From: a virus
Lineage: Duplodnaviria; Caudoviricetes
Length of the DNA: 62,875 nucleotides
Virus record (IMG/VR): IMGVR_UViG_3300015245_000040
Coordinates: 1 to 62,875 of that record
Direction: 5' to 3' (one strand)
Below the pieces are notes generated by a model, which was not told the origin of the DNA, ran no database searches, and worked only from the letters and a program-made list of their open reading frames with translations. The position numbers and the translations under genes were made by a program. Shown piece by piece: positions 18,198 to 59,358 of the stretch. Each line of letters opens with the position of its first letter. Positions within the stretch are counted from its first letter, which is position 1.

Positions 18198-18284
18198 ATT
18201 AAAGAAATTATAGAGCTGACTTTTCATAGAAGGATGAGCCGACGGCCTGTAGCTCAAGTGGTTAGAGTAATCACCTTAAAATAA

Positions 18285-18361: not shown

Positions 18362-18363
18362 AC

Positions 18364-18774: not shown

Positions 18775-18899
18775 GTATTATTTCAATTTCCAAACAAAAA
18801 CATAAAAATATTAGAATAGTTATATTTTATGGAATACACAAACACTAAGTGATAGATCTGGGTTCAATCCCCAGCAGACCAACCAGTAAAGAGGGCAAC

Positions 18900-19682: not shown

Positions 19683-19746
19683 CTCAACTGGAAAGAGCAA
19701 CGAATTTCTAATTCGTAGGTTGAAAGTTCGAGTCTTTCCGGAGTCA
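19673..19746 (+). tRNA. tRNA-Arg(TCT)
   Basis: Cloverleaf; stem ACGAA/TTCGT, loop TT-TCT-AA. Confidence 0.88.
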
Positions 19747-19747
19747 C

Positions 19748-19821
19748 GGCGGGATGTCAGATTGGTTATGTAGGAAACTGCAAATTTCCCTAAGTGGGTT
19801 CGATTCCCTCTCTCGCCTCCA
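19748..19821 (+). tRNA. tRNA-Cys(GCA)
   Basis: GGAAA/TTTCC stem, loop CT-GCA-AA, U73, CCA. Confidence 0.8.
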
Positions 19822-19951
19822 TATGGTACGTGTAGCATAGTCTGGTTAATTCCCTCCCTGAAGTAAGGAATAAAATTCGTATGCAGCATATAAACGATTA
19901 TGAGTGTAATAAGGTTGAGATTAATTTATTTGACAGATGATAGTATTCTCA

Positions 19952-20026
19952 GGGCTTGTAGCTTAATCGGTCTAAAGCATACGACTTTTAATCGTAAGAT
20001 CCTGGGTTCAAATCCCTCCGTGTCCT
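19952..20026 (+). pseudogene. tRNA-Lys(TTT), probably degenerate
   Basis: Good D and anticodon arms (CT-TTT-AA) but mismatched T and acceptor stems. Confidence 0.6.
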
Positions 20027-31765: not shown

Positions 31766-32452
31766 TTATTCTTTCTTACCGTAATTCTTATTCCACATTT
31801 CTTCCTGATACAATCTATCAGCCTTACGTTCAGAGGTCTCAGGCAACTTCATTTTTAGATCACCTGTTGAATCTTCCCTTGATGCTAATCCCCACCTGGC
31901 TCCACTAGTCCTATCACCAGTAACTGTCCTAGCATAGGGATATTGTTGCTGAAGACTTCTCAGTAAACTTCTCATATCTGAAGTGCCAAAAACATGAGCA
32001 GAATTATTTGCTTGAGCGGCCCTATTTGTAAATGGTAATGGACTTCCTTCATCAGCTCCAATACTAGAAATATGAATATTATCAGTCCTTGGGTCATGAA
32101 TTAGTTCTACCCTACCAACAGATCCAACCATAGGTTTAGTATCATCTAATATGTCATGATCATAAGTAGTTTTTCCAGTCTTTCTATTATAAAACTTATT
32201 AGCAGGTTTAGATAAAAACAAAGCGGCAAGATAAGGACTCATTTTACCTGCCAAAGCAGTAGCCCCTTTTGCTACAATAGGACCGGCTGCCCCTAAAGCA
32301 TAAGGCCATAAATCTGAAGCAGCAGATCCTTGGTCTGGTTTTGTTTCTCGAGTAGGAGCTTGAGATGATACACCCTTTAACTGATCTGATATCAGTTTAT
32401 TTATCTGATCAGGGTCTTGTCCAGGGAATAGGTCTGAGTAATCTTCTGGCAT
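31766..32452 (-). CDS. Hypothetical protein
   Basis: 228-aa ORF between terL and portal. Confidence 0.65.
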   Translation of the reverse strand: MPEDYSDLFPGQDPDQINKLISDQLKGVSSQAPTRETKPDQGSAASDLWPYALGAAGPIVAKGATALAGKMSPYLAALFLSKPANKFYNRKTGKTTYDHDILDDTKPMVGSVGRVELIHDPRTDNIHISSIGADEGSPLPFTNRAAQANNSAHVFGTSDMRSLLRSLQQQYPYARTVTGDRTSGARWGLASREDSTGDLKMKLPETSERKADRLYQEEMWNKNYGKKE

Positions 32453-34104
32453 TATTTTATTCTGGCTCGGCTTGTGAACCTAATCCTATCTTGTTTATTC
32501 TCACTTGCGGCAAAAACGTCATCTAAAGAAACATTACAAACATTAGGGTCAGTTGAGAGGATCTTAGGACGTTCCTCTTCTGGTGATTTATATGGACTGC
32601 CGGAAATCATTCGGTCCAATATCTGGCCCACGAGTCCTATTGCGTCGACTGCGTCATCATTCTTACCAGCAGGGAAAGTAAGCATTTCACGTCTTAATTC
32701 AGCGTACCACGGTTTCCTGCTGGGAAAGTAAACCTTAAGCATAGCCATTCTTCCGCGAATTGATTGAGCACGTATAGATTTATCACCACGGGTGGGGAAC
32801 TGTGCCCTGGCTATATACAGCCCACGCTCCATAAGCCTTTTATGAATAAAGGGGCCAACACCTGCCCTGATCTGCCCTGACTCCTCAGCCCAACCTAAGG
32901 GTCTCCATTCTTTAACTAAGTCACAAAATGCCTCAACCCATTTATCAGATGAAGTCCTATTACGCCAAAGGTCTAGAATAAAAACATTATTATCTGGATC
33001 TACTCCAGCCACAATATGCACTGTATAATCCCCATCCCCACTAGTTACTGCATAGTCACTAGCCCCATAAATACGCAAAGATTCACGGTGAGGAACTGGA
33101 GTACGGGTTCCTTCACCATATTCCATAAACCAAGAGGATTCGAAAAAGTTACCAGTCTCAGGGGCAGGTCTTTGTTGATAAAGAGCTGACCAAGCCCGTG
33201 CTGTAGCAGGGTTGGTCTGTAATGGTATATAATCTTCTTGTCTGAAGTACTCAGGCCAAAGCCATTCACCGTGATTTCTACCTAGAGGATCATCATCCCT
33301 CTCGCAGACCATTGGTAGACAAACTACATACCAATCATAACCATCCTGTCCTTTAATCCAACCCGATTCACCATTATAATTTACTGGCAAAATGCGTCCA
33401 GGTGGATCATCTTCATGCCACCTAGTGTTGATTCCTACCTCCCATGCACCTGGTTTTTTACGTGTCCTCAATGAGTTAACATACTCATCCCATGTTCTAT
33501 CACGTATCAATTTAGAATCAGCATCTTGTCTGCCTTTAATCAAATCATCCCATACAACACCATCAGCACGGTTACCAGTAATACCTGATAGTATACCAAC
33601 AGCCTTCCATTCTGATCCATTAGTCAAGGTCCATTCATCAGCAGCAGCACTATCAGGTGATAGCTCTGTCCCAAAGATACGTTTATATAAAGGTTGCCTG
33701 ACAATAGACCTAGCCCACCTACCTTGCTTCTTAGGTAGATCGCTACCATAACCAGTTACAATAACTGTCTTATTAGAAAATCTACCCATAAAATGGGTGG
33801 GAAAACATACTGAAGAATAGAGACTTTTTGCTGATCCTGGAGGCATTAATCCCAGAAGCCTTGATATCTTTCCATCTTCTACATCTTGAAGACACTTCAA
33901 CCACAAAAGATGGTGAGCACCAAAAGCCTTAGGTATTGGTACGAAACGTTCTTTTTCTTCTTCATCAGAATCAGCAGGACGGGTTGGAATATCAATTATA
34001 GAAGCATAAGTTAATAAATCATTCTTAGCCCTAAACCTCTTCCGACGTTCAGTCTGTAGATCCCTCAGTTCCCCTGATAGTCTCTGTACTTCTGCTGAAG
34101 GCAT
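32452..34104 (-). CDS. terL: Terminase large subunit
   Basis: MPPGSAKS Walker A, VVWDD Walker B, TRWHEDD, LYQQRP, ASDYA, FPAGKNDDAVD. Confidence 0.95.
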   Translation of the reverse strand: MPSAEVQRLSGELRDLQTERRKRFRAKNDLLTYASIIDIPTRPADSDEEEKERFVPIPKAFGAHHLLWLKCLQDVEDGKISRLLGLMPPGSAKSLYSSVCFPTHFMGRFSNKTVIVTGYGSDLPKKQGRWARSIVRQPLYKRIFGTELSPDSAAADEWTLTNGSEWKAVGILSGITGNRADGVVWDDLIKGRQDADSKLIRDRTWDEYVNSLRTRKKPGAWEVGINTRWHEDDPPGRILPVNYNGESGWIKGQDGYDWYVVCLPMVCERDDDPLGRNHGEWLWPEYFRQEDYIPLQTNPATARAWSALYQQRPAPETGNFFESSWFMEYGEGTRTPVPHRESLRIYGASDYAVTSGDGDYTVHIVAGVDPDNNVFILDLWRNRTSSDKWVEAFCDLVKEWRPLGWAEESGQIRAGVGPFIHKRLMERGLYIARAQFPTRGDKSIRAQSIRGRMAMLKVYFPSRKPWYAELRREMLTFPAGKNDDAVDAIGLVGQILDRMISGSPYKSPEEERPKILSTDPNVCNVSLDDVFAASENKQDRIRFTSRARIK

Positions 34105-34856: not shown

Positions 34857-35432
34857 CTATTTAGACGCCATAGTTCTGGATGAAGTATGACTCTTTTTCT
34901 TCTGTGCCTTCCCACTCATTAGTGCCTCAAGATGTTCCAATAACTCAGTATCATGTTCATCTTTGTATGGTTCCAAGTCCAGGTCCGAGGGGATTTTAGT
35001 TAATTTCTCATGAGCATCAGCTTTGATATAAGGATCAAAAGCCCTTTGATAAACACCCCACCAACCAGGGCCTATCATCTCCAACACACCACGCCTCTCA
35101 TATGCTGTAGCCAATTGATGGGCATGCTGATAGTGGAAATGCATTTGATCCAGCATTGTCTTTTCAAAAGTTTCATGCCTCATCAAAAACGGTATTGGAT
35201 CTATTTCCCTAGTTTGTCCATCACGCTCCAATTTAATTTTATCTGGAAGATGTTTATCAAAGTAAATTGTATTTCCATCTAAGGAGTACCCTCCAAGGTA
35301 GGGTATCGTGAACTCCTTACTTATCTTCCTTAGCTTATATAGCTCATGCTGGATCGATTCATTTTTCAGATAACGATCCAGCACTTGGGAATTGATACCA
35401 AATCCACCTAAATGTCGGTGACCTGATGACAT
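34857..35432 (-). CDS. Hypothetical protein (possible metal-binding)
   Basis: HExxE and HxHxxA motifs. Confidence 0.6.
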   Translation of the reverse strand: MSSGHRHLGGFGINSQVLDRYLKNESIQHELYKLRKISKEFTIPYLGGYSLDGNTIYFDKHLPDKIKLERDGQTREIDPIPFLMRHETFEKTMLDQMHFHYQHAHQLATAYERRGVLEMIGPGWWGVYQRAFDPYIKADAHEKLTKIPSDLDLEPYKDEHDTELLEHLEALMSGKAQKKKSHTSSRTMASK

Positions 35433-35437: not shown

Positions 35438-36364
35438 TCAGACACCCCTAACAAACAAAGCATTAAAAGTCCAATTAGACAAGTCAGTATTATTAAATTG
35501 CTGAAGATAGTCAGTTGTTGAAGCCACTATTTCAAAGTATCCGCTAGCCTCCATCTGACCGTTCCCACCTTGATACATAGAGCTTTGAAGCCAGATAAGT
35601 TTATCACCAGCCTGTATTCCAGGCACACTAATAATACCACTACCATCATTTCCAGTAAATGTTGCACCTACAATTTCAGGTGATGAGGTCACAGAACTTG
35701 TGTGGGGTAAAATAGTCCCTTTTATATTTGTAGCTGCCCAAGCCCACCCAAATCCACTTCCTTCACCTGCCACGTTTAGATTGGCAGTCGCTTGATTAAT
35801 TCCATAACCTGCCGCTGCAGATGTCAGACCTGCATTATTAACAAATATTTGATTCCCATTAAAGCCATTGAAATGATGACCATTCCCATCCGTACACACA
35901 AAACTACCAACATATGCGTCACTAGTAGATGTTATTATTGATGGTATAGTAGGATCACCAGAAGTTCCATTGTTAGTATTAACACTATTAAATGTCGTTG
36001 ATCCACCTGTTTGATCGACACCATATAATGAGATGCCCCCACTTTTAACACTGTCTACAGTACTAGCCCAAGAAACTGATAGCGTTTTATTACCACTCAC
36101 AGGGGCTACTAATCCCCATAATTGGACTAGTGTGACATTAGTAGGATCATTGGCTTGAGCTATCAAAGATAAAGATTGATTAGCCCCTGTTAGGTCCCAA
36201 GTCACACTAATTCCAGTTGGTTGACTATAAGTAGACCATCCAAAATTAAGGGAATAAACTAAAGCCCTATTTATCCCCGTACCAATTGTTAATGAAGTAT
36301 CAGTAAACGAAGATACATTATTGTTTAAACCTCCAAATGAAGTTGCATCAAGATCGACTGCCAT
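35438..36364 (-). CDS. Putative virion beta-rich protein
   Basis: Ser/Thr/Gly-rich; WGLVAPxSG and YGVDQT motifs. Confidence 0.6.
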   Translation of the reverse strand: MAVDLDATSFGGLNNNVSSFTDTSLTIGTGINRALVYSLNFGWSTYSQPTGISVTWDLTGANQSLSLIAQANDPTNVTLVQLWGLVAPVSGNKTLSVSWASTVDSVKSGGISLYGVDQTGGSTTFNSVNTNNGTSGDPTIPSIITSTSDAYVGSFVCTDGNGHHFNGFNGNQIFVNNAGLTSAAAGYGINQATANLNVAGEGSGFGWAWAATNIKGTILPHTSSVTSSPEIVGATFTGNDGSGIISVPGIQAGDKLIWLQSSMYQGGNGQMEASGYFEIVASTTDYLQQFNNTDLSNWTFNALFVRGV

Positions 36365-37526
36365 ATTTTATCTCCAATTCTTTCACAATATCATTGATGA
36401 CTGGATCCCAATCATCACGTTCCCTCTGTCTGAAAATTCTCATTGAAGGGTACCACGGACTAGAGTCATTCCAAGAACAATCAGGTCGTTTTGCCATAAA
36501 CTGCCAACCATAAGAATAATCAGATAACATTAACCAAACCTGCTTCCCCATTGAAGCAGCCAAATGTGCTACACTTGTATCTATACTAATCAACAAATCT
36601 AAATTTTCAATCAGAGCTGCCGTTTCTGCCCAATTCAACAATCTTTCATCTTTTGGTAGGACATCTGCAATCAGATTATTGACAAGTCTAGTTGGACCTG
36701 CCTGTACAGCAACAAATCTACATGGATCTATTTCAATGATTGGCTTAAGTAGATCAAATACTATTGATTTTCTATAAAGGTAACGTTCTTTCCATTGCCC
36801 TGACTTAGGCCCAGTTGACCAACAAATTCCTATTTTATTTTTACAAGATTTGTATTTCTTAACTAATTCAGAATCAGATTTAATATAAGGTCCAGACCAG
36901 GGAATTGTATCTAATTCAGTTTGTAATACATAAGGTAGATCATCTGTTGGTAGGTGATAATCAAAGTCTGATACACCAGTTGTACCTGGATAGTCAGTAG
37001 CCAATTGAATTACCTCAATATCATGAAATGAATCCCTAGCAAGTTTTACTGCCCCTGCTTTTGCTTCATACCTAACTGTGTAACCTTTTTCTACAAGTAA
37101 TGGCAAATAACGCATTAAGCAGATATTATCACCTTCACCAGAAGTGGAGTGGATATGCACAACTGCCGGAGGTGGTTGATTTATGAATAATGATTTCCCA
37201 TTGAATCTTTTGATGTCTTGCCCTAAGATTGTTTTAGTATCTAGTTTCGCCTGGAATGATTGTTCCCATCCCTCTCTACAGAGTCCTATAGAAGACATGG
37301 AAGATGATAAATAAAACCTGAGTAGTGAATTATTACCGTCATTTATTTCTAATAATGGACTTAATAGTTCTATTGTTTTTTCATGATCTCCTTTAGCAAA
37401 GGCAATTAATGCTTTAATAATTAAAACATCATTAAATAAGTTCGGATCAGTCATAGAATTACTGATCCGAACTGCTTCATCGAATTTTTCTAATTCTATT
37501 AATGAGAGGACATGTTCTAAAGACAT
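36348..37526 (-). CDS. TPR plus glycosyltransferase family 9-like protein
   Basis: GEGDxI...RY, IGICWS, TAALIENLDLLISIDTSVAHLAASMG, SPWYPSMRIFRQ. Confidence 0.85.
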   Translation of the reverse strand: MSLEHVLSLIELEKFDEAVRISNSMTDPNLFNDVLIIKALIAFAKGDHEKTIELLSPLLEINDGNNSLLRFYLSSSMSSIGLCREGWEQSFQAKLDTKTILGQDIKRFNGKSLFINQPPPAVVHIHSTSGEGDNICLMRYLPLLVEKGYTVRYEAKAGAVKLARDSFHDIEVIQLATDYPGTTGVSDFDYHLPTDDLPYVLQTELDTIPWSGPYIKSDSELVKKYKSCKNKIGICWSTGPKSGQWKERYLYRKSIVFDLLKPIIEIDPCRFVAVQAGPTRLVNNLIADVLPKDERLLNWAETAALIENLDLLISIDTSVAHLAASMGKQVWLMLSDYSYGWQFMAKRPDCSWNDSSPWYPSMRIFRQRERDDWDPVINDIVKELEIKYGSRS

Positions 37527-38506: not shown

Positions 38507-38764
38507 TCACTCCTTTGATATATTGGTAGCAAAATGCCCTTTAAGACCTTGATTGACCACACATAATACCTTGTCACCCTCCTGAATAGTCTCAAGCCCC
38601 GACTTTTGAAGTTGCTGTTTATGCATGAAGACATCGTTAGGATAACCTTCACACTGTATAAACCCAAATCCCTTGGTATCATTAAACCATTTGCAAACCC
38701 CCCGTACTTTAACTACTTTATTGAGCTTGGAAGTATCATTAGGTGCGCTATTAGTATCACTCAT
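38507..38764 (-). CDS. Cold-shock domain protein
   Basis: GVCKWFNDTKGFGFI and DVFMH (RNP1/RNP2). Confidence 0.92.
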   Translation of the reverse strand: MSDTNSAPNDTSKLNKVVKVRGVCKWFNDTKGFGFIQCEGYPNDVFMHKQQLQKSGLETIQEGDKVLCVVNQGLKGHFATNISKE

Positions 38765-39270
38765 TTAATCTTCTCATCTTCTATCGAAGTTACCACTGGA
38801 GCTAGATCTTTTTCAGATAGCTCAATATGAACTTGTTGTCCCAGCATTTCTATAAGAACACGCACCCTATCATTAGGTCGCATGCCATCGTATAGTCCAG
38901 TATAACCCTCTAATGGGCCTGTAGCAACTCTCACCTGTTGCCCTTTTTGGAATTTAGTTGGCTCTGGTAACGTAATCAACCCTGCTTTATCTTCACGCAT
39001 TTTTAAATCTTCTATGATCTTATCTGATACAATCACTGGTTTGCTGTCTTGTCCAATCATAATCCTACTCACACCAAATGTCGAATTTATTCTGTGCCAT
39101 TGTTGTTCTATCTGCACAAAAAAATATCTGGGAAATAATACCTTAATTTTAATTTCCTTTCCAACCCTGCTCATGTATTTAGGTAAGTAAGGAACAAAAC
39201 CTTGCCTTTCCAAGTTAATAATTGCTCTGTTCTCATTTCCAGGCTTAGCTATAACAACACTCCAGTACAT
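38761..39270 (-). CDS. NusG/RfaH-family transcription elongation factor
   Basis: NLERQGF, LFPRYFFV, INSTFGV, KOW FQKGQQVRVATGPLEG...RVRVLIEMLG. Confidence 0.9.
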   Translation of the reverse strand: MYWSVVIAKPGNENRAIINLERQGFVPYLPKYMSRVGKEIKIKVLFPRYFFVQIEQQWHRINSTFGVSRIMIGQDSKPVIVSDKIIEDLKMREDKAGLITLPEPTKFQKGQQVRVATGPLEGYTGLYDGMRPNDRVRVLIEMLGQQVHIELSEKDLAPVVTSIEDEKIK

Positions 39271-39779: not shown

Positions 39780-39815
39780 GTTTCCAAAAACTAGGGCTGG
39801 TGGGGCAGCCCTTTT

Positions 39816-39890
39816 GCGCGCGTAGCCCAACTGGTAGGAGGCAACAGATTTAAGATCTGTACAGTGTCAGTTCGAATCTGACCGCGCGCA
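39816..39890 (+). tRNA. tRNA-Leu(TAA), short variable loop
   Basis: GCGCGCG/CGCGCGC acceptor, loop TT-TAA-GA, GTTCGAATC. Confidence 0.85.
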
Positions 39891-39913
39891 TCTTTACCTT
39901 TCAGGAACTATTT

Positions 39914-40081
39914 ATGACACCACAGACCAAGGCAAGGCTTTATGCAATAGGAGCTAGTATCAATGCCATACTAGCAACATTGTCAGTTCATTGGATTAAT
40001 AGTTCCGTTTCATATTTCTTTAATGCTATAGCATTTTTAATATGCTCGTTCCTGGCCTTAAAAAACTACCGCTTGCTATGA
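39914..40081 (+). CDS. Small membrane protein (55 aa)
   Basis: AGGA RBS; hydrophobic ORF. Confidence 0.45.
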   Translation: MTPQTKARLYAIGASINAILATLSVHWINSSVSYFFNAIAFLICSFLALKNYRLL

Positions 40082-40090
40082 GGTATAGGC

Positions 40091-40276
40091 ATGACAAAAC
40101 AAAAACCTAAGTTTACAAACGTTAAGTTTCCTTTTCCTGAGGGTGCTACTGTAAAGGAAATTATGAATTGGATACATGGTGATGATATCAGAACCAAAGG
40201 TGATTTGGTTGGTTGGACTGGTTCACCACCTATGCACTTGAATAGGGAACCAGTTGCAACTAATAAAAAGAAGTAA
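40091..40276 (+). CDS. Hypothetical protein
   Basis: 61-aa ORF with GAGG RBS. Confidence 0.5.
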   Translation: MTKQKPKFTNVKFPFPEGATVKEIMNWIHGDDIRTKGDLVGWTGSPPMHLNREPVATNKKK

Positions 40277-40281
40277 GTTAT

Positions 40282-40370
40282 GGAGGGTTGGCAGAGTCAG
40301 GCTGATTGCGACGGTTTTGAAAACCGTTAATGGATAAAACCATTCGGGGGTTCGAATCCCTCACCCTCCT
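40282..40370 (+). tRNA. tRNA-Ser(TGA)
   Basis: GGAGGGT/ACCCTCC, loop TT-TGA-AA, long variable arm. Confidence 0.88.
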
Positions 40371-40642: not shown

Positions 40643-41538
40643 GTCCCATGTACCAGGGTATTACACCAATTCATTTTATGAATGATTTTTATGTGAAAAG
40701 GGAGGATTTAGCGTTCTGGTCCTCACTTGATTACCCAAGTGGATCCAAAGTCAGACAATATTTTAATATGGTCAAGGCTTATGTACCTCAACACAGTGTT
40801 CCAGGGCATGCTGCAGGCTACTCAGACCTTTGTTATTCAGACTTGACTTGTTTAGTAGGTTGTTCTGCTAATAGTTGCCAGCAAGTGTATCTAGCAGCCA
40901 CGTCTAAAATTCTAGGAATGAAAGGAATTGTTTACACTGCCAAAAGAAAAATAAGGTCTGAGGCCACACTTTATGCTGAGAATTTAGGATGTGAGATTGT
41001 AGAAGTAAGACCGGCCTATTTATCAGTCATCAGGAAGGCAGCCCGGCAACGTGCCATAGATGAAAAGAATATACTTCAATGGGATAGAAAGGCAGCCATC
41101 CTAGATACTGCTGCTCAATGTGAAAATTTGCCGGCTGATATTCAAAGGATCATAGTCCCAACAGGGTCGGGTTTAACAGCTGCTGGTGTTCTACTGGGTA
41201 TAGCACAACATTTCAAAGGGGATAGTTATCCCAGTGTAGTCATAGTGGCTACTTCACCCATGGCATCTCCTGAAAAGGTTATGCAGATGGCCATGGCAGC
41301 CAATCAGAATAGAATATTTCCAATGTCCCCTTTAGAGTTTATTCACCCCAGTACACCCTATGATGTTCCAGTTATTGAACGGTTACCAGATGGTACGCCC
41401 CTTGATTGTTTTTACGCTGGAAAGGCTTTGAAGTATCTGACTGCTGGTAATATGATTTGGTTACCCGGGTTACGGCCTGTTGTAAGTATGCCAAAAATAT
41501 GCCAAGATGCTTTTCAATCTTGGAAAGGCCCAACATAA
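40639..41538 (+). CDS. PLP-dependent enzyme (fold type II, ACC deaminase/cysteine desulfhydrase-like)
   Basis: YVKREDL...GSKVR, IVPTGSGLTAAGVLLG, LD..YAGKA. Confidence 0.8.
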   Translation: MSPMYQGITPIHFMNDFYVKREDLAFWSSLDYPSGSKVRQYFNMVKAYVPQHSVPGHAAGYSDLCYSDLTCLVGCSANSCQQVYLAATSKILGMKGIVYTAKRKIRSEATLYAENLGCEIVEVRPAYLSVIRKAARQRAIDEKNILQWDRKAAILDTAAQCENLPADIQRIIVPTGSGLTAAGVLLGIAQHFKGDSYPSVVIVATSPMASPEKVMQMAMAANQNRIFPMSPLEFIHPSTPYDVPVIERLPDGTPLDCFYAGKALKYLTAGNMIWLPGLRPVVSMPKICQDAFQSWKGPT

Positions 41539-42041
41539 TGAGAAAACCACGACGTACAATTGCCCCGTTTACACCTGATTTCTTAAGAAATGTTTTGCAT
41601 TATGATGATAAGACAGGGGAGTTTAAATGGTTATCTGGGAGATCGGATAAAATTGGAAAGATAGCTGGTTATGATGGTAAAGGAACTAACCGTTATCACA
41701 TGATTGGTATAGATAGAAACGATTATACCACCTCAAACTTAGCATGGTTTTATATGACCGGTGAATGGCCCCTCCATGAAGTCGATCATATAAACAGAAA
41801 TAAACTTGATAACAGATGGAATAACCTTAGATTGGCCACACACAGTAATAATTCTACTAATTGTGTTAGAAAGAAAAAAAGTGGGTTGCCAAGAGGTGTT
41901 GTCTTATCGCGCGGGCTATATCAGTCACAGATTATGATAAATAAAAAGTGTATCTGGTTAGGCCGATTTAACACGATTGAAGAAGCTCATCAAGCCTACC
42001 TAAAAGCTTCCGAATTCAGAAAAGAATTCTTACCAAGTTAA
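41538..42041 (+). CDS. HNH homing endonuclease with AP2 domain
   Basis: LHYDDKTGEF, VDHINRNKLDNRWNNLR, WLGRFNTIEEAHQAY. Confidence 0.9.
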   Translation: MRKPRRTIAPFTPDFLRNVLHYDDKTGEFKWLSGRSDKIGKIAGYDGKGTNRYHMIGIDRNDYTTSNLAWFYMTGEWPLHEVDHINRNKLDNRWNNLRLATHSNNSTNCVRKKKSGLPRGVVLSRGLYQSQIMINKKCIWLGRFNTIEEAHQAYLKASEFRKEFLPS

Positions 42042-42745: not shown

Positions 42746-42933
42746 GACATCTGAGAGTGATGGGTAGACAAGTTGAAGATCCTGAAAACAGGGGTGAGAC
42801 AGCACATTGGATTGCAGCCCCAATGAAGGATGTTGGAACTATTCAACAATTTCATGAAGTTGTTGAGCGTGCAGATGCGGTTATGGAAAAACTACAGAAT
42901 ACAATTAAATATTTGCAGGAAAAGGGTAAATGA
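42742..42933 (+). CDS. Hypothetical protein
   Basis: ATGA overlaps on both sides. Confidence 0.5.
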   Translation: MRHLRVMGRQVEDPENRGETAHWIAAPMKDVGTIQQFHEVVERADAVMEKLQNTIKYLQEKGK

Positions 42934-43811
42934 CTAAATGCCATCTCTGTGGAAATGAATTTAAGCAGCCAGTTCTTCAACAAGGGGGCACTCCAGGTAA
43001 GATTTACTGCAGCAAGAAATGCCGCTCTAGAATGGGGGAATTAAGGAAAAAAGAAAGAATAAAAAAGAGTTGGGCTGATGGGACGAGACGGGATGTGTGG
43101 TTAACAGAACATTATGGAATAACTGAAAAAGAATGGAATGATATCTTTGACAAGCAAGGAAGAGCTTGTGCCATCTGCAAGACTACTAAACCTAAAAGTA
43201 AAGTAGGATGGCACACCGATCATAATCACAAAACCAACAAAGTCAGGGGAATTCTTTGCGAAAATTGCAATCGTGGGCTTGGAATGTATGCTGAGGATAT
43301 ATCATTTTTAAGACATGCGATGGTATACCTTGGAGTACACCAAGGAATACTTAATGCGGAATCAATAGAAAAAGCAGGAATAATCTATCCATTCTTTCCC
43401 AGGTCCAATCAAAACGGAATGACCTTTGGTGTGAGTATGGCTGGATATGATATTAGAATAGATCAAGAATTAGTTCTTATGCCAAAGGATTTTTCATTGG
43501 CATCATCAATAGAATATTTTGATATGCCAAATGATCTGGTTGGCATGGTCTGTGACAAGTCAACACATGCCCGCAAAGGGTTACAAGCCTTTAATACGAT
43601 TATAGAACCAGGGTGGAGGGGTTACCTAACACTTGAATTAGTAAATCATAGTCATAGACCTATTTGGCTAAAGCATGGGGATCCTATTGTTCAAGTTGTC
43701 TTTCAGACTTTAACACAACCAACTGATAGACCGTATAATGGAAAGTATCAGGATCAGAAACGTGGCCCACAAGAAGCTATTCTTGAACCTGTAACAAAGC
43801 GTTGGGTGTAG
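42930..43811 (+). CDS. dcd: Endonuclease VII-type nuclease fused to dCTP deaminase
   Basis: N-half YGIT...Q...CAIC...DHNH...VRGILCENCNRGLG; C-half GYDIRI, DKSTHARKGL, IEPGWRGYLTLEL, YNGKYQDQ. Confidence 0.88.
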   Translation: MTKCHLCGNEFKQPVLQQGGTPGKIYCSKKCRSRMGELRKKERIKKSWADGTRRDVWLTEHYGITEKEWNDIFDKQGRACAICKTTKPKSKVGWHTDHNHKTNKVRGILCENCNRGLGMYAEDISFLRHAMVYLGVHQGILNAESIEKAGIIYPFFPRSNQNGMTFGVSMAGYDIRIDQELVLMPKDFSLASSIEYFDMPNDLVGMVCDKSTHARKGLQAFNTIIEPGWRGYLTLELVNHSHRPIWLKHGDPIVQVVFQTLTQPTDRPYNGKYQDQKRGPQEAILEPVTKRWV

Positions 43812-43873: not shown

Positions 43874-44149
43874 ATGAAGTTTCCTAAACATGAGGGTGGT
43901 TTAATCTTAACACATAATGATCATAAGTCTTGTTATAGAACAGTTAAGAAAGCTATAGATTACAATGATCCTGGTTACCGGGATAGTGATTGGGTTAGTG
44001 AAGAACAAAAGCAAAAAGCAATAGAAACAAATGACTGTTGGACCTTACAATGGTATCCCAATACCCCAATATCTTTTAATATTCTATCAGCAGCTGACTT
44101 AGAGGTCTTACTTAAGTATGTAGGTGAACATGATGAAAAAGAAATCTGA
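43874..44149 (+). CDS. Conserved phage hypothetical protein
   Basis: HNDHK...WVSEEQK.KAI...WTLQWYPNTP. Confidence 0.7.
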   Translation: MKFPKHEGGLILTHNDHKSCYRTVKKAIDYNDPGYRDSDWVSEEQKQKAIETNDCWTLQWYPNTPISFNILSAADLEVLLKYVGEHDEKEI

Positions 44150-44351
44150 TCTGGATGTATGGTTAGATGATCTAACAGATAGACAGAACCATTTATATAA
44201 GAATGTGCTTCCATGCCCTGAGTGTAATTCCATTCAAGTACAGGTGATAAAGTTTGAAGCCCCAGCCAAATGGAAATGCAGAATCTGTAAACAGGGGTTT
44301 ACACATGAACCAGAAACTTCAGGATCAGATAAAATACCCAGCAAAAGTTAA
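44130..44351 (+). CDS. Small Zn-ribbon protein
   Basis: CPEC...CRIC. Confidence 0.6.
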   Translation: MMKKKSDLDVWLDDLTDRQNHLYKNVLPCPECNSIQVQVIKFEAPAKWKCRICKQGFTHEPETSGSDKIPSKS

Positions 44352-44562
44352 TGAGTCCAGGGTAGAAAAAGAGGTAAGATGGCGTGCTCAGCATACATGG
44401 GATGGACCACCAACAACAATTGGGTGGGTCAGTATCCCTACCTGTTCAAGGTGCGGGTGTGATGCTTCAGAACAGACACCTTGTGAGGCAAAATCATCCC
44501 CTATTAATTTAGGTAACTTTAATCTAAAGGAAAGAAGTCTTAATGATTTGAATTATTTATAA
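44305..44562 (+). CDS. Hypothetical protein
   Basis: ORF with H...CSRC...C. Confidence 0.45.
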   Translation: MNQKLQDQIKYPAKVNESRVEKEVRWRAQHTWDGPPTTIGWVSIPTCSRCGCDASEQTPCEAKSSPINLGNFNLKERSLNDLNYL

Positions 44563-44573
44563 GATTCTTGTTC

Positions 44574-44655
44574 TGTTCTAATTTCAAAAATTCTATATAT
44601 AGAAGATAAATAAAGATACCTATGTACCCTTTTTGTTCTAATTTTAAAAATTTCT
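44574..44655. repeat. AT-rich imperfect direct repeat, 60-nt spacing
   Basis: TGTTCTAATTTCAAAAATTCTA / TGTTCTAATTTTAAAAATTTCTA. Confidence 0.7.
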
Positions 44656-44941
44656 ACTATAGTAGACAGGGGTTCTTACGTATCCGTACCCTGGGCAAGT
44701 GGGTTGTTTTGTTGATACCAAACTCATCCCATGTATACCATTTCCCCTGATAGCCCCCTTACTTGGTATACTATACCAAGCATAGTATAATCATATACTA
44801 TACATATAATATCAAGCATGTGCCTAGCATACATGGCATAGCCATGTCAACCCCATTGACATACATAGCCCTGCGTTGCAGCCACTACAGGCATCATCAT
44901 ACCTAGCACGTGCTGCTATAGCCACCCCCTCATGTCAACCC

Positions 44942-45009
44942 TTATTCACTGGCATGCCAGTGAATAATTAATTGGTCATGGGTTGACGCGTGTTGTGCAC
45001 GTGCTATGT
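44942..45009 (+). promoter_or_regulatory. 26-bp perfect palindrome followed by a putative sigma70 promoter
   Basis: TTATTCACTGGCATGCCAGTGAATAA (44942-44967); TTGACG at 44983, CTATGT at 45004. Confidence 0.55.
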
Positions 45010-45220
45010 AAGGGGTGTTGAGGCAGCCATATAGGTTGCTGGGTTCACCTGATACGGCGGTTGCCCTCACCCGGGGGCAACACGGGGTTGACAGCCCCTA
45101 GCAACGCCGCAGCGCCCGTGCCAACCCGTAAGGGGGTGCATAGCAACGTTATTGTGGTTGACGCCTTCAACCGCATGCGCTGTCAAGTCAGGCAGCGCAG
45201 GTGTGTGAAGGCTAAAAACC

Positions 45221-46375
45221 ATGACCAAAGTTACTGTTGACCATGATGACGTTGACGGCGCGGCCCTGACCCGGGCAGCACTTACCACACATGCCCCTGA
45301 TACGGGCTTGCAGGTGGCCGCTGATGCGGTTGAGGCTGACGGGGCGGGTGATACCGCCCCTGATGATCATACCGCGCCTCAGGGTGACGCGCCGGCCGGT
45401 GGCGTGGCTGACATCATTGCCGCCATTCAGGCGGGTGATGATGCGGCCCTGACGGTTGCGCTTGATGCCACCACAAAGGTGGCTGATGACGCGGCCAACA
45501 ACCCGGCAGTACTGACGGCGGCCAAACCTGCCAAGCAGGTGGGTGAAACCAAAAAGCAGTACGCGGCGCGCATCAAGGCGTGGCAGGCTGAAACGGTCAA
45601 GGCGGCAACGCCTGTGATTGATGCGGTGGTTGACCCTGACATGGCCGCGCACAAGGCGGCCATTGAAGCGGCCAACGTGGCGGTTGAGGCTGACAAGCCT
45701 TTGCCCCGTACCATGCCTATGCTGGTCAGCACACCGGTCATCATGGCCCAACCTGCCACCCCTGTTTGGCCCGGTGGGTTTGACTTGAGCGGTTGGGCTG
45801 ACATGGCCGCTGATACGGCGTGGCAGGGCGGGCTTGCCCCACCCTGCCCTGATGTTGATGCGGTGCATGCGGCGTGTGCCCTGAGTGCGGGTAACCCTGA
45901 CAATGGGGTGCCACGGCTCAGTGAACCCCATACCAAAAAGGTGATGTCAATTGCCTGCTACTTGACACAGGCAATGCCGCAGCACCTTGACCAGTTGAGC
46001 ACTTTCAACGTGTTTGACTGGGGTGTGGCAATGCACATGTGCCGGTCATTGGGGCGGGTATGTGGTACCACGGCTGACAACAAGCAAAATGCCAGCCTTG
46101 ACGCTGAACGGGCCATGCTACTGTCAATTGACCGTGGCCTATCAGTTCAACACCGCTACGGCACCAGCACCAAACGGGGCGTGGTGTACCGCAACCGGGT
46201 CACCACTACCAAGGGGTACCTACTGGTGACACGGTACTTTGACCGCATCAACCGGCCGGTACCGTTGTGGCTGAGTGGCTATCATGCAGCGGTGGCAAGC
46301 TGGCAACTTGAGCACCAGCCCGCCAAGCCTGTTGACGGCATGGCCGCCCTTATGGGCGCGCCCAATACCAAGTAA
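45221..46375 (+). CDS. Ala/Asp-rich early hypothetical protein
   Basis: 384-aa ORF with TGAAGG RBS and downstream terminator. Confidence 0.75.
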   Translation: MTKVTVDHDDVDGAALTRAALTTHAPDTGLQVAADAVEADGAGDTAPDDHTAPQGDAPAGGVADIIAAIQAGDDAALTVALDATTKVADDAANNPAVLTAAKPAKQVGETKKQYAARIKAWQAETVKAATPVIDAVVDPDMAAHKAAIEAANVAVEADKPLPRTMPMLVSTPVIMAQPATPVWPGGFDLSGWADMAADTAWQGGLAPPCPDVDAVHAACALSAGNPDNGVPRLSEPHTKKVMSIACYLTQAMPQHLDQLSTFNVFDWGVAMHMCRSLGRVCGTTADNKQNASLDAERAMLLSIDRGLSVQHRYGTSTKRGVVYRNRVTTTKGYLLVTRYFDRINRPVPLWLSGYHAAVASWQLEHQPAKPVDGMAALMGAPNTK

Positions 46376-46380
46376 AACTC

Positions 46381-46415
46381 AGGGGCTAGCCTTGTGTGAG
46401 GCTAGCCCCTATTTG
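46381..46415 (+). terminator. Intrinsic terminator
   Basis: AGGGGCTAGCCT/AGGCTAGCCCCT then ATTT. Confidence 0.65.
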
Positions 46416-46467
46416 CCTTTTAGCATGCTTTGTCAGGTTGGCAGGGCAGGTGAAAAGGCAAAAAACC

Positions 46468-46653
46468 ATGTGGGCGTTTACTATCAGGCCAAATGTCACA
46501 ACACCCTCACATTTCAAGTGGCGTTGTGACATCACCTGTAACGGTACCGTTACAAATATACATACCTATGACAGTGATATGCTGCGGTTGGCGGTGCAGG
46601 CTGTCATATTATGTGAGGGCTACAACAATCATGACAAGGCAAAAGGGGGCTGA
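46468..46653 (+). CDS. Early hypothetical protein
   Basis: TGAAAAGGCAAAAAACC-ATG. Confidence 0.6.
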   Translation: MWAFTIRPNVTTPSHFKWRCDITCNGTVTNIHTYDSDMLRLAVQAVILCEGYNNHDKAKGG

Positions 46654-46983
46654 AAAGCCCCCTTACTTACACTAGGCTAAGTTGCATTCATAAAAAAGCC
46701 TAGGTTCAAGTGATTTTTGCGCCGGGTTTGCACCATAATAAGTTGTATACAACCCTTTGCGGCTATGTGCTAACCTACTCAATCACGGCACATAGCTTGA
46801 AAGGGCAAATGGCGGCCAAGTATGAAATGCGTAGCACGCGGCCGTAGGTAAAGCATTACCTATTGTAGCATAATATGCTACGGCGCGGGGTACGTTATAC
46901 GCCCTCAGTTAGTACCACGTACCCCAAACCGTAGCATAAAATGCTACGGTTCATGATAATGTACCCCTTTGCGGCCATACGCT

Positions 46984-47031
46984 TCACTTGACTGTCAACA
47001 CTTGACATCACTTGACTGTCAACACTTGACA
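46984..47031. repeat. Perfect 24-bp tandem duplication
   Basis: TCACTTGACTGTCAACACTTGACA x2. Confidence 0.95.
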
Positions 47032-47062
47032 TGTGAGGGCGTATGGCTTGAAAGGGCAAATT

Positions 47063-47266
47063 ATGAATAACCATGACTATGAGGCATGGCTGAACCTGTT
47101 GACCACAGCCATGCAACAGGCTGTCACTGATACCCCGGTGTTTGACCGGGGTCATATGGGTGAGCGGCTGATGCACACTCACTACCCTGACCCTGACGTG
47201 CGGCGGGTATTCAGGCGTTCATACCGCCGCGCCGCCGCTCAGGCAGCTTTTATCAGCCGGGTGTGA
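47063..47266 (+). CDS. Early hypothetical protein
   Basis: TGAAAGGGCAAATT-ATG. Confidence 0.65.
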   Translation: MNNHDYEAWLNLLTTAMQQAVTDTPVFDRGHMGERLMHTHYPDPDVRRVFRRSYRRAAAQAAFISRV

Positions 47267-47398
47267 AACCTGTTGCGGTATAAAAGCGTATACTAACGTA
47301 GTTTATACAACCTGCTACCTTAAGGGGCTAATTAGCCCCCTAGCCCTTTGCGGCCGTAGGTTAACTTAAATTTGACCTACGGCTTGAAAGGGCAAATC

Positions 47399-47728
47399 AT
47401 GGCTGATCAAACTGAGTTGTTACATGAGTTGATCACTGAGTTGGGCGCGCGTCACGTGCTCACCATTGACGCCAACAACATGATTTTGGCGTACCGTGAT
47501 CAGGGTGAGTACAAGGGCAAGGCGTATGACAAATACCGGCTTGCCCCGTTTTACTGGTACGCCCGCGCTGCCGCGTGGCAGCAGGCCAGCGGCTCACTGG
47601 GCGTACCGTACGGCCGCAAGGCTGATTTGCTGGCAGGGTTGGTACGGGTTGCCGCTGATGACGCGGCCACTACCAAACTGTTGACGCTGCGGCGTGACAG
47701 TGACGCCAGCGCGGGCGCTGGCGTGTGA
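47399..47728 (+). CDS. Early hypothetical protein
   Basis: TGAAAGGGCAAATC-ATG; hairpin at 47735-47760 follows. Confidence 0.7.
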   Translation: MADQTELLHELITELGARHVLTIDANNMILAYRDQGEYKGKAYDKYRLAPFYWYARAAAWQQASGSLGVPYGRKADLLAGLVRVAADDAATTKLLTLRRDSDASAGAGV

Positions 47729-47857
47729 TAACAGGGGGGTGCTACCACCCTAGCACCCCCCACCTACAAACGCCTGTAACATACCTTAAAACCCCGTGGC
47801 GGGGCATGCCTTGCGCTGTAGTGCTCAACTCAGGGCATTACTGTTGAGGGCAAGCAA

Positions 47858-48229
47858 ATGGGTAAGTTACCCTGCATCATGATTTACCGTAATAGCAGTA
47901 ACAGCAGGTTCAACCTGACCCTACGGCTGCAATGCGGTCACGTGGCTATGTGGGTATACCCGTGGTCAATTGGCTTGACTGGCTTCAACTGGCCAGCCAC
48001 GGCTTACCGCACTGATAGTGAAAAAAGTTGTGGCTGTGAGTACTGTGATGACTTGCCGCCCGGTACGTGGGTTTTCAATGACAATACGCTCACCATACGC
48101 TGGCGTGGTTGGCGTCATGTTGACCGCACCCGGGGCGTACTCAATGATGACGGCACAGTCACATGGCGGCGTTATTGGCGTTGGCCCATTGAAGCATTCA
48201 GCCACAGTCAACATGACGCCAACTGGTAA
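47858..48229 (+). CDS. Early hypothetical Trp/Cys-rich protein
   Basis: TGAGGGCAAGCAA-ATG. Confidence 0.65.
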   Translation: MGKLPCIMIYRNSSNSRFNLTLRLQCGHVAMWVYPWSIGLTGFNWPATAYRTDSEKSCGCEYCDDLPPGTWVFNDNTLTIRWRGWRHVDRTRGVLNDDGTVTWRRYWRWPIEAFSHSQHDANW

Positions 48230-48236
48230 GGGGTTT

Positions 48237-48270
48237 TGATAGGTGGGCAACGCCCACCTATCACCATTTC
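48237..48270 (+). terminator. Intrinsic terminator
   Basis: TGATAGGTGGGC/GCCCACCTATCA hairpin. Confidence 0.6.
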
Positions 48271-48416
48271 ATTTTCAATGTCAAATCAATGTCAAATCGT
48301 AGGGTTTTAGGCTGGTTCTTATGATCCAGCTGAGGGAGGCAGAGGGAGGTCAATCTTTGATCTGAGCGAGGCCGAGGCAAAGAAGATTTAATGCATCTTG
48401 AGGGGAGTTGGGATCA

Positions 48417-48605
48417 TTAGATACTTTTTATCTTCTTCCCTGAGACGATATTGATCTGAGGGGAGGTGGGAGGATTATCTTCCCTGATTCTATCAAGAAC
48501 AATTAATCGAATAAACTCAGATACCGAGCGGCGAGCACGAGCTGCTGCCTCAAATATCCTGTCTTTCTCGTCCTTTTTCACTGAAACACCAATCTGTAAT
48601 GGCAT
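48417..48605 (-). CDS. Ribbon-helix-helix DNA-binding protein
   Basis: IGVSVKKDEKDRIFEAAARARRSVSEFIR; GGAGG RBS. Confidence 0.75.
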   Translation of the reverse strand: MPLQIGVSVKKDEKDRIFEAAARARRSVSEFIRLIVLDRIREDNPPTSPQINIVSGKKIKSI

Positions 48606-48674
48606 CTTACCCTCCTATTGACTCCTAATGAACCATATTATATGTTCGATAAGTTATACATATTTCTTAACACA

Positions 48675-49322
48675 ATGTCTAGGACTCATATTGAGATGAA
48701 AGACCTACAGACTGCCCGAGTTGGGGAACTTATCAATAAAATCAATTCATCTAGTAGACGAGCGATCATTGAAATCGGAGGTTACCTTACGGAGTTAAAG
48801 AAGATAGTGGGACATGGAAATTGGTTGCCTACACTACAGCGTGAATGGGGTTGGTCTGATAGACAGGCACAAAGATATATGAATGCCTTTGCCACATTTG
48901 GACCAAATACGTCACACGCGCCGGATTTGACCCATATAAATCTGTCAGACAAAACAATATTTCTTCTTGCAGCGCCATCAACTCCTGAAGATATAAGGAT
49001 TAATATCCTTAAACGTGTTGAGGGAGGTGAGAAGATCCGGTATACAGACGTTAAAGATCTTATTCCTAGCAAGAAAATACCTATTGTTAAGGAGGTCAAG
49101 CCTATAATATCCGAGTCCAAGACACCTGTCGTCCCATCATCTAAGCCTAAGATCGAGGTAATGGTACCGAACCCACCGTCCTATAACTGGGACACAGACC
49201 CCAGAACCCTAAAACTCAAGTCCGAGCGTGATCGTCTATTAAAAGACCAGGGGTTATTAGCCAAAATTCGTGCCTCTTTAGACGAATCTGAATGGGATTA
49301 TCTCATGTCCTTGGTTAAATAA
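48675..49322 (+). CDS. DUF3102-like protein
   Basis: IIEIGGYLTELK...HGNWLP.L..EWGWS.RQAQRYM; start uncertain. Confidence 0.7.
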   Translation: MSRTHIEMKDLQTARVGELINKINSSSRRAIIEIGGYLTELKKIVGHGNWLPTLQREWGWSDRQAQRYMNAFATFGPNTSHAPDLTHINLSDKTIFLLAAPSTPEDIRINILKRVEGGEKIRYTDVKDLIPSKKIPIVKEVKPIISESKTPVVPSSKPKIEVMVPNPPSYNWDTDPRTLKLKSERDRLLKDQGLLAKIRASLDESEWDYLMSLVK

Positions 49323-58500: not shown

Positions 58501-59358
58501 ATGAAAAGTATTCTTATCAGCGGAGCAACCGGTACCATAGGTTCTGCAGTCGTAGCTCAGGCATTAGAAGGTAATTGGGATAGAATTGTTATCTACTCAA
58601 GGTGTGAATATAAACAAGCGTTGATGGAACAGTCCTTAATCAAGCATCATAATTTCCATAAATTACGCTTCTATTTAGGTGATGTACGTGATCTATTACG
58701 ATTAGAAATGGCTATGACTGGGATTACCCATGTGGTTCACTGTGCTGCCCTGAAACGTATCGAAAAATGTGAATCTGACCCTATAGAAGCCATCAGAACT
58801 AATATAGATGGAACTGCAAATGTTATCTACGCAGCCCTTAGTTCAGGTGTTTATCATGTCTGTGCAGTATCGACTGATAAGGCTTTCTCACCTCAATCAT
58901 TATATGGGGCAACCAAACTAACAATGGAACGTTTAGTTCTAGCAGCCAATAATATCAGTGGTGGAAAATGCACCTTCTCAGTAGTCCGTCAAGGTAATAT
59001 ATTTGGATCACGTGGTTCTGTTGTAGAAATATGGACTAAAATGATCCAAAGTGGCTGTAAATCTATACCTGTCAGTGATCCTGATGCTACCCGTTACTTT
59101 GTCCGGCGTGGTGATGCAGCCACTTTTATCATAAATAATCTAGAATTACCTGGATTACACTTACCTGATGATCCCCCTGCTTTCAGGTTAGGTGATCTGG
59201 CTGACGCCATGAGACCCCCTGGGGTCTCAATCCATATCACTGGGTTATTGCCTTACGAGAAATTAAAGGAAGAACTTAATGAAACTCAAAATAGCGGTAA
59301 TGCTCGTCTTCTAAGCGTAGACGAATTACGCTTAGAACTTAAACTCCTTAAATTGTAA
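58501..59358 (+). CDS. UDP-GlcNAc 4,6-dehydratase-like (PseB/FlaA1 family) SDR enzyme
   Basis: SGATGTIG, YSRCEYKQ, GDVRD, HCAALK, STDKA, YGATK, RQGNIFGSRGSV. Confidence 0.88.
   Translation: MKSILISGATGTIGSAVVAQALEGNWDRIVIYSRCEYKQALMEQSLIKHHNFHKLRFYLGDVRDLLRLEMAMTGITHVVHCAALKRIEKCESDPIEAIRTNIDGTANVIYAALSSGVYHVCAVSTDKAFSPQSLYGATKLTMERLVLAANNISGGKCTFSVVRQGNIFGSRGSVVEIWTKMIQSGCKSIPVSDPDATRYFVRRGDAATFIINNLELPGLHLPDDPPAFRLGDLADAMRPPGVSIHITGLLPYEKLKEELNETQNSGNARLLSVDELRLELKLLKL

Follow-up and report, generated by a model that had tools for sequence, protein, structure and literature searches.

A phage operon-like block free of VGA and TCB trinucleotides, recurring in relatives and possibly purged of the target of a DNA-acting enzyme

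We analyzed a virus contig of 62,875 nucleotides (nt) from IMG/VR (record IMGVR_UViG_3300015245_000040, Duplodnaviria, Caudoviricetes; CheckV completeness 69%). The whole record is referred to here as the window and, in comparisons with relatives, as G000. The subject is a block at 44744-48298, hereafter the island, from which the trinucleotides VGA (AGA/CGA/GGA) and TCB (TCT/TCG/TCC) are absent; one word set is the reverse complement of the other. The island lies in a rightward block of genes (39.4 to 49.3 kb) and contains five plausible open reading frames (ORFs), all on the + strand. Its features are listed below, with promoters and terminators assigned by consensus matches only.

44712-44741, + strand: weaker promoter-like sequence TTGATA-18-TACCAT, just outside the left edge (consensus scan)
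44744-48298, no strand: site-free island, VGA/TCB absent from both strands, GC 54.8%
44763-44791, + strand: sigma-70-like promoter TTGGTA-17 nt-TATAAT, 10/12 match, 19 nt inside the left edge (consensus scan)
44798-45220, + strand: putative long leader before the first gene, about 430 nt, its start placed from the promoter-like site
45221-46375, + strand: first and largest island gene, 384 aa (ORF, with homologues in G001 and P0002-P0005)
46381-46410, + strand: terminator-like hairpin, 13 bp, directly 3' of the first gene (consensus scan)
46396-46653, + strand: possible 85-aa ORF of uncertain coding status, without homologue in relatives
46753-46805, + strand: hairpin element copy 1, CCCTTTGCGGC-stem...stem-GCTTGAAAGGG (repeat comparison)
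46965-47056, + strand: hairpin element copy 2, its loop with two tandem 24-nt TTGAC-rich repeats at 46984-47031 (repeat comparison)
47033-47266, + strand: small ORF, 77 aa from GTG, the likely true start being ATG 47063 behind GAAAGGGCAAAT
47343-47393, + strand: hairpin element copy 3 (repeat comparison)
47372-47728, + strand: island gene, 118 aa from TTG, probably 109 aa from ATG 47399 (56% identity to G001 homologue)
47858-48229, + strand: island gene, 123 aa, Trp/Arg-rich with a conserved Cys (44% identity to G001 homologue)
48237-48263, + strand: terminator-like hairpin, 12 bp, the island ending 34 nt after it (consensus scan)
48298-48600, no strand: flank dense in VGA/TCB (site density)

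Our recount of the island (3,555 nt) gave 0 for each of AGA, CGA, GGA, TCT, TCG and TCC, in agreement with an earlier note made from the sequence alone, which had described this interval as completely free of the six words. From base composition (A 820, C 959, G 990, T 786), 341 VGA/TCB would be expected; the related words TGA and TCA occur 128 and 86 times. All 4,007 VGA/TCB positions of the window lie in the backbone, at near-expected frequency. The longest gap between them, 3,554 nt (44743 to 48297), is followed by a runner-up of 203 nt. Every tetranucleotide missing from the island contains one of the six absent words, which means that “no VGA, no TCB” describes the rule in full. With sites at 6.75% per nt, as in the backbone, the natural logarithm of the probability of a site-free stretch of 3,554 nt is -248.6, and for the 1,179 non-coding nt of the island, which are also site-free, it is -82.5. 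In addition, we reshuffled synonymous codons in the five ORFs using the island's own codon pool, which contains no forbidden codon. These shuffles gave 125.9 +/- 7.2 sites at codon junctions (minimum of 104 in 1,000 shuffles), against 0 observed. The absence of sites on both strands, in all frames, in non-coding DNA and at codon junctions supports the view, also put forward in the earlier note, that the constraint works on DNA and not on codons.

The edges of the island are abrupt, with a site density per 100 nt of 6-9 to the left, 0 within and 12-16 to the right, and GC content is 54.8% compared with about 36-50% in 1-kb windows elsewhere; the sharp borders and higher GC noted earlier were thus both borne out. 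In contrast to the island, the backbone shows no depletion (ratios to expectation of 0.95 for AGA, 0.95 for GGA, 0.99 for TCT and 1.01 for TCC), and CGA/TCG are low there only because CpG is low (rho 0.47). This suggests that an agent recognizing TCB matters for the island only. Nowhere in the record are VGA/TCB sites denser than in the flank at 48298-48600 (31 per 200 nt at 48341; mean 12.75, sd 4.9), which also holds purine-rich repeats, GAGGGAGG and two copies of TGAGGGGAG-TGGGA. GANTC was found 0 times in the island and 140 times in the backbone; we rejected this as a sign of CcrM, since the wider VGA/TCB rule already entails the loss of GANTC.

Several elements within and around the island were also examined. 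Patches of the leader are conserved with G001 in alignment, for example the stretch right before the ATG, and a search of 44000-49000 against Rfam gave no family at threshold. In the hairpin element, the CCCTTT arm pairs with AAAGGG of the ribosome-binding region, and the stems vary in sequence between copies while complementarity is kept. The GCTTGAAAGG word of copy 3 is shared with the island of G001 and was also seen at the G002 island edge. The TGAAAGGGCAA word before island start codons also precedes genes at 55524, 58421, 60055, 62659 (-) and 56331 (+), and its use before genes of the 55-63 kb region indicates a general translation-start motif of the phage. Immediately upstream of the island are two 36-nt AT-rich direct repeats (TGTTCTAATTTYAAAAATT...; window 44571-44666, 60 nt apart), with no other copies in the record.

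The large terminase of G000 is a 550-aa protein (32452-34104) with many relatives in IMG/VR; its closest annotated relatives, at about 50% identity, are those of Microcystis phage Mwe-JY13 and Brucella phages. We scanned 80 terminase-matched IMG/VR loci for VGA/TCB-free runs and then the whole records of the nearest relatives. Two loci had outstanding runs, L001 (1,581 nt, cut by the locus end) and L005 (854 nt, from the record named G002), and islands were found in three relatives.

G001: 14855-18379, 3,525 nt, one exception (CGA); terminase 84% identical
G002: 784-1636, 853 nt, no exceptions; terminase 66% identical
G003 (95 kb, CheckV 100% complete): 29842-30588, 747 nt, one exception (TCT); terminase 63% identical

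Trinucleotide counting along the genome and in relatives, which had been suggested as a check, therefore showed a gap unique in the window and islands in three other phages. More distant relatives G004 and G005 (terminase 46-47% identical) had no island, with longest gaps of 86 and 82 nt in their full records, and none was seen in the other 74 IMG/VR loci within the DNA examined, or in 23 contigs of bacterial or archaeal genomes with distant terminase relatives, for which 10 kb on either side of the terminase was covered. Runs of 203-262 nt with GC of about 70% in L008, L010 and L014 were set aside as low-complexity coding; L010, the one inspected, has a Pro/Gly-rich stretch. The contig of L099, a relative identified through its PALP gene, ends before the expected island position, and a metagenome match, L097, was spurious (41% identity over 44 aa, longest site-free gap 47 nt). 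No near-identical DNA was present in the phage collection for either the island or 20 kb of backbone.

The same three reverse-complement word pairs are missing from all four islands, which also have common skews (TCA/TGA about 2x, CAA/TTG 1.8-2.8x, GCC/GGC 1.6-1.9x) and are GC-richer than their own backbones, the GC of which spans 42-53%. The islands of G000, G001 and G003 are syntenic, as is that of G002. Although the structural DNA of G000 and G001 aligns at 77-80%, their islands share only a 74-nt stretch in DNA. In G001, a promoter-like sequence (TTGACG-18-TACAGT) lies 30 nt inside the left edge, and the G003 island sits between two terminator-like hairpins. A dense VGA/TCB patch was also found downstream of the island in G003 (43 per 300 nt, mean 18.9) and upstream of it in G002. 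An identical word set in diverged phages argues against an ordinary strain-variable restriction-modification (R-M) system and for something constant, either an enzyme of the lineage itself or a conserved class of host enzyme whose context preference is fixed. CpG showed a separate pattern: its rho indicates strong depletion in the backbones of G000 (0.47) and G001 (0.43) and none in those of G002 (0.89) and G003 (0.85), and it is 0.69-0.90 in the islands.

None of the island proteins matched a Pfam family. In the 384-aa protein, which is 32-36% identical to its 376-aa counterpart in G001, an acidic N-terminal half rich in Ala is followed by a conserved C-terminal domain. The 118-aa and 123-aa proteins are 56% and 44% identical to G001 proteins of 125 and 133 aa, respectively. 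This range of 32-56%, compared with 84% for terminase, points to fast evolution of the island proteins. A HMMER search of 1.84 billion representative proteins revealed four homologues of the 384-aa protein (P0002-P0005; 82%, 41%, 33% and 47% identity), and the sole match of the 118-aa protein among 5.8 billion proteins was a 109-aa protein 100% identical to it, that is, itself. Single-protein locus scans in IMG/VR with the island proteins gave nothing, an alignment-based scan gave only G001 again, and ESM Atlas gave sub-threshold leads only (RegA-like at 0.89). The AlphaFold model of the conserved C-terminal domain had a pLDDT of 72, and fold searches with this domain gave no significant match, the weak ones being mostly winged-helix (best Z 4.5; Foldseek E of at least 0.36). 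G002 and G003 each have a single island gene (198 aa and 164 aa), and kinship of these proteins with the 384-aa family is only suggestive, based on a hhalign probability of 12% and a BLASTP E of about 0.1.

The rule leaves a footprint in protein sequences. Met, Trp, Lys, Gln and Glu have no T-ending codon and therefore cannot precede Asp or Glu under the rule; similarly, Trp, encoded by TGG, cannot precede Ile, Met, Thr, Asn or Lys. These 15 forbidden dipeptides ([MWKQE][DE] and W[IMTNK]) are not encodable without VGA. We found none of them in 11 of 11 island proteins from the four phages, and none in the four homologues P0002-P0005 (expected 5.9, 5.6, 7.7 and 2.4), which indicates that the rule was kept through divergence down to 33% protein identity. 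In seven backbone proteins, they occur 4-29 times each; five of these proteins are near the shuffle expectation and two are below it, portal (29 vs 44.8) and PALP (4 vs 5.3). The VGA/TCB rule is thus a limit on the possible sequences of island proteins.

Codon usage also sets the island apart. GC at third codon positions (GC3) is 0.64 in the island compared with 0.30 in late genes and 0.35 in other genes, and the codon fractions differ accordingly (ATA 0.12 vs 0.33, TTA 0.06 vs 0.31, AGA 0 vs 0.25). The phage carries the following tRNA genes.

16699-20027 and 39815-40370: nine tRNA genes, Ser-UGA (x2), Thr-UGU, Ala-UGC, Ile-UAU, Arg-UCU, Cys-GCA, Lys-UUU and Leu-UAA

With the exception of Cys, these tRNAs (8 of 9) read A-ending codons, of which late and other genes make heavy use, whereas ATA, TTA, AGA, ACA, GCA and AAA, each served by this set, are rarer in the island. 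The tRNA set suggests a host GC-richer than the phage. For the clade, host hints are alphaproteobacterial (GcrA in G003, and terminase relatives in Brucella phages and Sinorhizobium contigs). The leftward late operon of roughly 39 kb encodes portal, terminase, capsid-like and glycine-rich proteins, and at its head are a NusG-like gene (38761-39270) and a cold-shock-domain gene (38507-38764).

Other parts of the genome had features of their own. Direct-repeat families (45-102 nt, 68-89% identical) with a spacing of about 1,037 nt were found at 9800-12600, which suggests three or four copies of one module; homologues of parts of this stretch are present in G003 and G002. The ORF at 42930-43811 encodes an endonuclease VII domain fused to a dCTP-deaminase-like domain. 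Its homologue in G001 (L082 13449-14006) has the deaminase-like part only, so the endonuclease VII looks like an inserted homing-type module. Further HNH endonuclease genes are found at several other places in the record, one of them at 41457-42041. Sugar-pathway genes include a Polysacc_synt_2 dehydratase/epimerase and a weak glycosyltransferase-9 match (58501-59358 and 36348-37526), and phosphoheptose-isomerase-like, ATP-grasp and two class I methyltransferase genes (one at 4963-5586) are also present; the target of the sugar pathway may be the virion, the host envelope or DNA. In G003 (L086), the genes for a DNA methylase and a family-A DNA polymerase with an N-terminal UDG-like domain are interrupted by inteins (279-2318 and 4403-8419), and this phage also encodes replication genes and a GcrA-like regulator, which hints at an alphaproteobacterial host. 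Finally, a 191-aa protein (34857-35432) conserved in island-bearing relatives was tried as a candidate modifier and rejected, as it looks like a minimal metallopeptidase and not a DNA enzyme. It has 32 database homologues and no Pfam family; its predicted structure (pLDDT 84.5) bears a weak likeness to the minimal metallopeptidases IrrE and selecase, and longer homologues have a C-terminal extension like high-potential iron-sulfur protein (PioC, E = 1.6e-5).

What has to be explained is the DNA-level purge of six words, seen again in relatives and coinciding with a predicted transcription unit, together with host-like coding. Our preferred explanation, held tentatively and at slightly under even confidence, is that the island is an immediate-early operon purged of the three-base target of some enzyme acting on DNA at the time when the operon has to function. 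This self-contained unit would consist of a promoter, a long leader, four or five small genes and a terminator; host RNA polymerase would transcribe it without phage help, and its translation would not need the tRNAs of the phage. GC3 of 0.64 and little use of phage-tRNA codons suggest that it was built for host machinery before phage tRNAs or factors are available. Selection would have cleared every 5'-TCB-3' (5'-VGA-3' on the opposite strand) from both strands, even to the point of forbidding amino-acid pairs. The enzyme that targets TCB might be a nickase or nuclease that cuts frequently, a cytosine deaminase with “TC” context or some other base modifier, of host origin or carried or made by the phage, and even one enzyme event within the operon would have a high cost. 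In the remaining 94% of the genome the word is kept at normal numbers, perhaps because operon products or other protection deal with the enzyme before this DNA is needed. Both the enzyme and a protective role of the island proteins are inferred here, as is early timing, for which we draw on promoters, codon usage and tRNAs. The earlier note had proposed a first-injected or first-transcribed segment, possibly a terminal repeat. The edge promoter, terminator and GC3 favor a first-transcribed segment, while the first-injected or terminal-repeat part was unsupported.

Several points weigh against this explanation. The sequencing runs listed included one soil run with a few 151-nt pieces and no RNA run, leaving “early” to the indirect signs named above. 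No promoter was found in G002 at the threshold of the scan. We know of no enzyme with TCB specificity, and none was found in this analysis. If the enzyme were a double-stranded DNA (dsDNA) nuclease, the 4,007 backbone sites would be cut as well, barring protection or later entry, and an enzyme acting on single-stranded DNA (ssDNA) at transcription bubbles should favor the non-template strand, whereas both strands are equally clean. Neither a terminal position nor two-step entry was supported, and phage T5 first-step-transfer (FST) DNA, the nearest model, lacks a trinucleotide purge. Nothing ties the island proteins to defence, given the absence of Pfam matches and the weakness of winged-helix-like fold matches. 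The earlier proposal that the island ORFs are takeover or anti-defence factors fits with fast evolution and the lack of a known family, and as to function they are candidates. It is also possible, with the balance of our judgment leaning against it, that the lineage lives with a DNA-acting enzyme of 5'-TCB-3' specificity absent from catalogues and copes by means of a target-free “safe-harbour” operon, the fast-evolving proteins of which neutralize or exploit the enzyme. This enzyme would be a frequent nickase, a dsDNA or ssDNA deaminase or a bulky base modifier, and would be either the phage's own or a conserved host defence.

Other explanations were considered. The phage might modify its own genome at every VGA/TCB and keep an early operon site-free as ordinary DNA for host RNA polymerase or factors, with the NusG-like and cold-shock-like proteins helping polymerase through modified DNA. 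The word set is constant across diverged relatives, as an enzyme of the lineage itself predicts, the island coincides with a transcription unit, the densest site patch lies right beyond the terminator and could act as a barrier, and the NusG-like and cold-shock-domain genes head the 39-kb late operon. Also, the complete G003 encodes an intein-split N6_N4_Mtase DNA methylase domain; this was the only one of 5 records searched with such a match (42 bits for the ORF, the six-frame match falling short of the curated cut-off), with none in G000, G001 or G002. However, no match to TGT/DpdA (PF01702, six frames, E <= 1) was found in G000, and no Que, FolE, thymidylate-synthase-like or DNA-methylase family among the scanned ORFs (in one scan, among the best 25 of 32 families). 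The hypermodification model of the earlier note thus gained no enzyme from a record that is 69% complete. Host polymerase reads T4, SPO1 and deazaguanine-containing DNA without trouble. Hypermodification of short motifs is real, as the available text on phage Iggy gives DpdA modification of about 97% of GA sites (PMC10484667), yet Iggy has no GA-free or VGA-free block (longest GA/TC-free gap 171 nt, longest VGA/TCB-free gap 229 nt), so that known short-motif modification needs no unmodified early operon. On balance, we regard own modification as rather unlikely. The avoidance of DarT-like ADP-ribosylation at TNTC (the DarT2 motif according to the available part of PMC11543638), which the earlier note had raised, was rejected, because TNTC occurs 24 (+) and 39 (-) times in the island (63 in all).

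Alternatively, the island might be first-entering DNA, a leading end cleared of the sites of a restriction-like host nuclease, or of CRISPR protospacer-adjacent motifs, for the time until island proteins block the defence and the remaining genome follows. A preprint on two-step injection of T5 reportedly offers a precedent. Further precedents are the T5 FST record annotation and Murciavirus leading regions (PMC12455610, available part), and contig breaks at 47 nt (G001) and 783 nt (G002) past the downstream island edge could reflect a physical end. Nonetheless, the island is internal in G000 and in the complete G003, and it stops at terminator-like hairpins and not at a contig end. The ends of G000 share no exact repeat of at least 10 nt, metagenomic ends not needing to be physical, and the island has no second copy. 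T5 FST DNA is not purged in this way, and we know of no three-base restriction site or protospacer-adjacent motif equal to TCB. R-M specificities vary by strain, yet four phages avoid exactly the same six words. We therefore consider this explanation quite unlikely; avoidance of host restriction, as suggested earlier, may nevertheless be at work, and identical words in diverged relatives argue against its strain-specific form. Even less probable, in our view, is avoidance at the RNA level, in which transcripts of both strands would escape endoribonuclease cutting at UCB or VGA. The island matches a transcription unit, mRNA interferases with three-base sites exist (MazF at ACA), and GGAG, the site of T4 RegB, is necessarily absent from the island. 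On the other hand, all plausible genes are on one strand, yet each word and its reverse complement are equally absent, and the purge covers promoter DNA before the likely transcription starts (about 54 nt in G000 and about 63 nt in G001). We give almost no credence to a compositional relic, that is, recent foreign DNA from a donor lacking these words or an end-product of C-to-U hypermutation without selection. GC of 55% compared with about 42% and enrichment of TTG/CAA and TTT/AAA, the deamination products of TCB, would fit with it. Against it, island genes are syntenic and homologous in G001 and diverged in place with the rule kept, TCA/TGA, which is not a deamination product, is the most enriched, long ORFs are intact with tuned codon order, and the block is GC-richer, not GC-poorer, than its surroundings.

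Motif avoidance in phages is usually a mild depletion of sites of 4-8 bp, whereas here a word of three bases, expected every 10-15 nt, is wholly removed over 0.75-3.5 kb in at least four phages, with edges that match the predicted transcription unit. Such a degree of purging implies a very potent activity recognizing only three bases. Whether it came from the phage, as a nuclease or a genome modification, or from a conserved defence of bacteria, its source would be new, and such an enzyme, if it exists, would be useful as a reagent for frequent nicking, deamination or modification. Candidates for immediate-early takeover or counter-defence proteins, none from a known family, are also picked out by the island, and the forbidden-dipeptide footprint offers a way to detect further cases from protein data alone. 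If the safe-harbour possibility were true, DNA-level defence pressure would directly limit protein sequence space, with 15 dipeptides banned.

Comparison with known systems revealed both likeness and differences. T5 FST DNA, which is classically said to lack EcoRI sites, is similarly a small fast-evolving takeover block working before the rest of the genome. According to its record annotation, however, this DNA belongs to a 10.2-kb terminal repeat and has an injection stop signal, whereas the island showed no sign of a terminal location or repeat. Second-step transfer in T5 requires A1/A2-type genes, and the island proteins have no Pfam family; moreover, T5 FST (1-9140) lacks no trinucleotide pair (minimum count of 117 in 9,140 nt), whereas 6 of 64 words are absent from the island. 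Chlorovirus nickases, which occur with cognate methylases, recognize three-base sites with a “not-X” position (Nt.CviPII at CCD, Nt.CviQII at RAG) and act against host DNA. To our knowledge, chloroviruses methylate the whole genome and have not been reported to keep site-free operons; for the present lineage no nickase was identified, several HNH endonucleases are encoded by G000, and a DNA methylase domain was found in the relative G003 only. APOBEC3 pressure is seen as depletion of TC context. This footprint is statistical and concerns eukaryotic viruses, unlike the complete removal in the island, where TCA is spared, and we know of no bacterial deaminase of TCB context. As far as the available text goes, APOBEC3 pressure is strongest on early-lytic genes of herpes and polyoma viruses (PMC8115780). 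According to the accessible part of another study, DpdA deazaguanine modification takes place at GA in Iggy (dPreQ0) and at GA/GGC in CAjan (PMC10484667). In these systems a phage enzyme acts on nearly every copy of a 2-3-nt word containing GA; the island differs in that G000 has no TGT/DpdA match and TGA is allowed, even enriched. How T5 DNA escapes A1-driven degradation is stated to be unknown in the available portion of a recent preprint (bioRxiv 10.64898/2026.04.02.716235). For Murciavirus (Autographiviridae) and the Type I R-M system Mme2I, a motif-free leading region decides sensitivity: sensitive phages have the motif, while certain natural isolates and escape mutants lack it in this region, as described in the consulted portion of PMC12455610. 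The likeness is that a defence motif is absent from the early-acting part though present elsewhere in the genome; in the island, by comparison, a degenerate three-base word with about 340 expected occurrences is wholly removed, proteins are reshaped, and the same is seen in diverged lineages. No description of a trinucleotide-free phage block was found in the literature searched, supplements not covered. Motif avoidance in early phage DNA is thus already known from T5 and Murciavirus (PMC12455610, available part), and what we do not know to have been reported before is a degenerate trinucleotide as the word avoided, its complete removal, lineage-wide conservation of this state and the resulting constraint on proteins.

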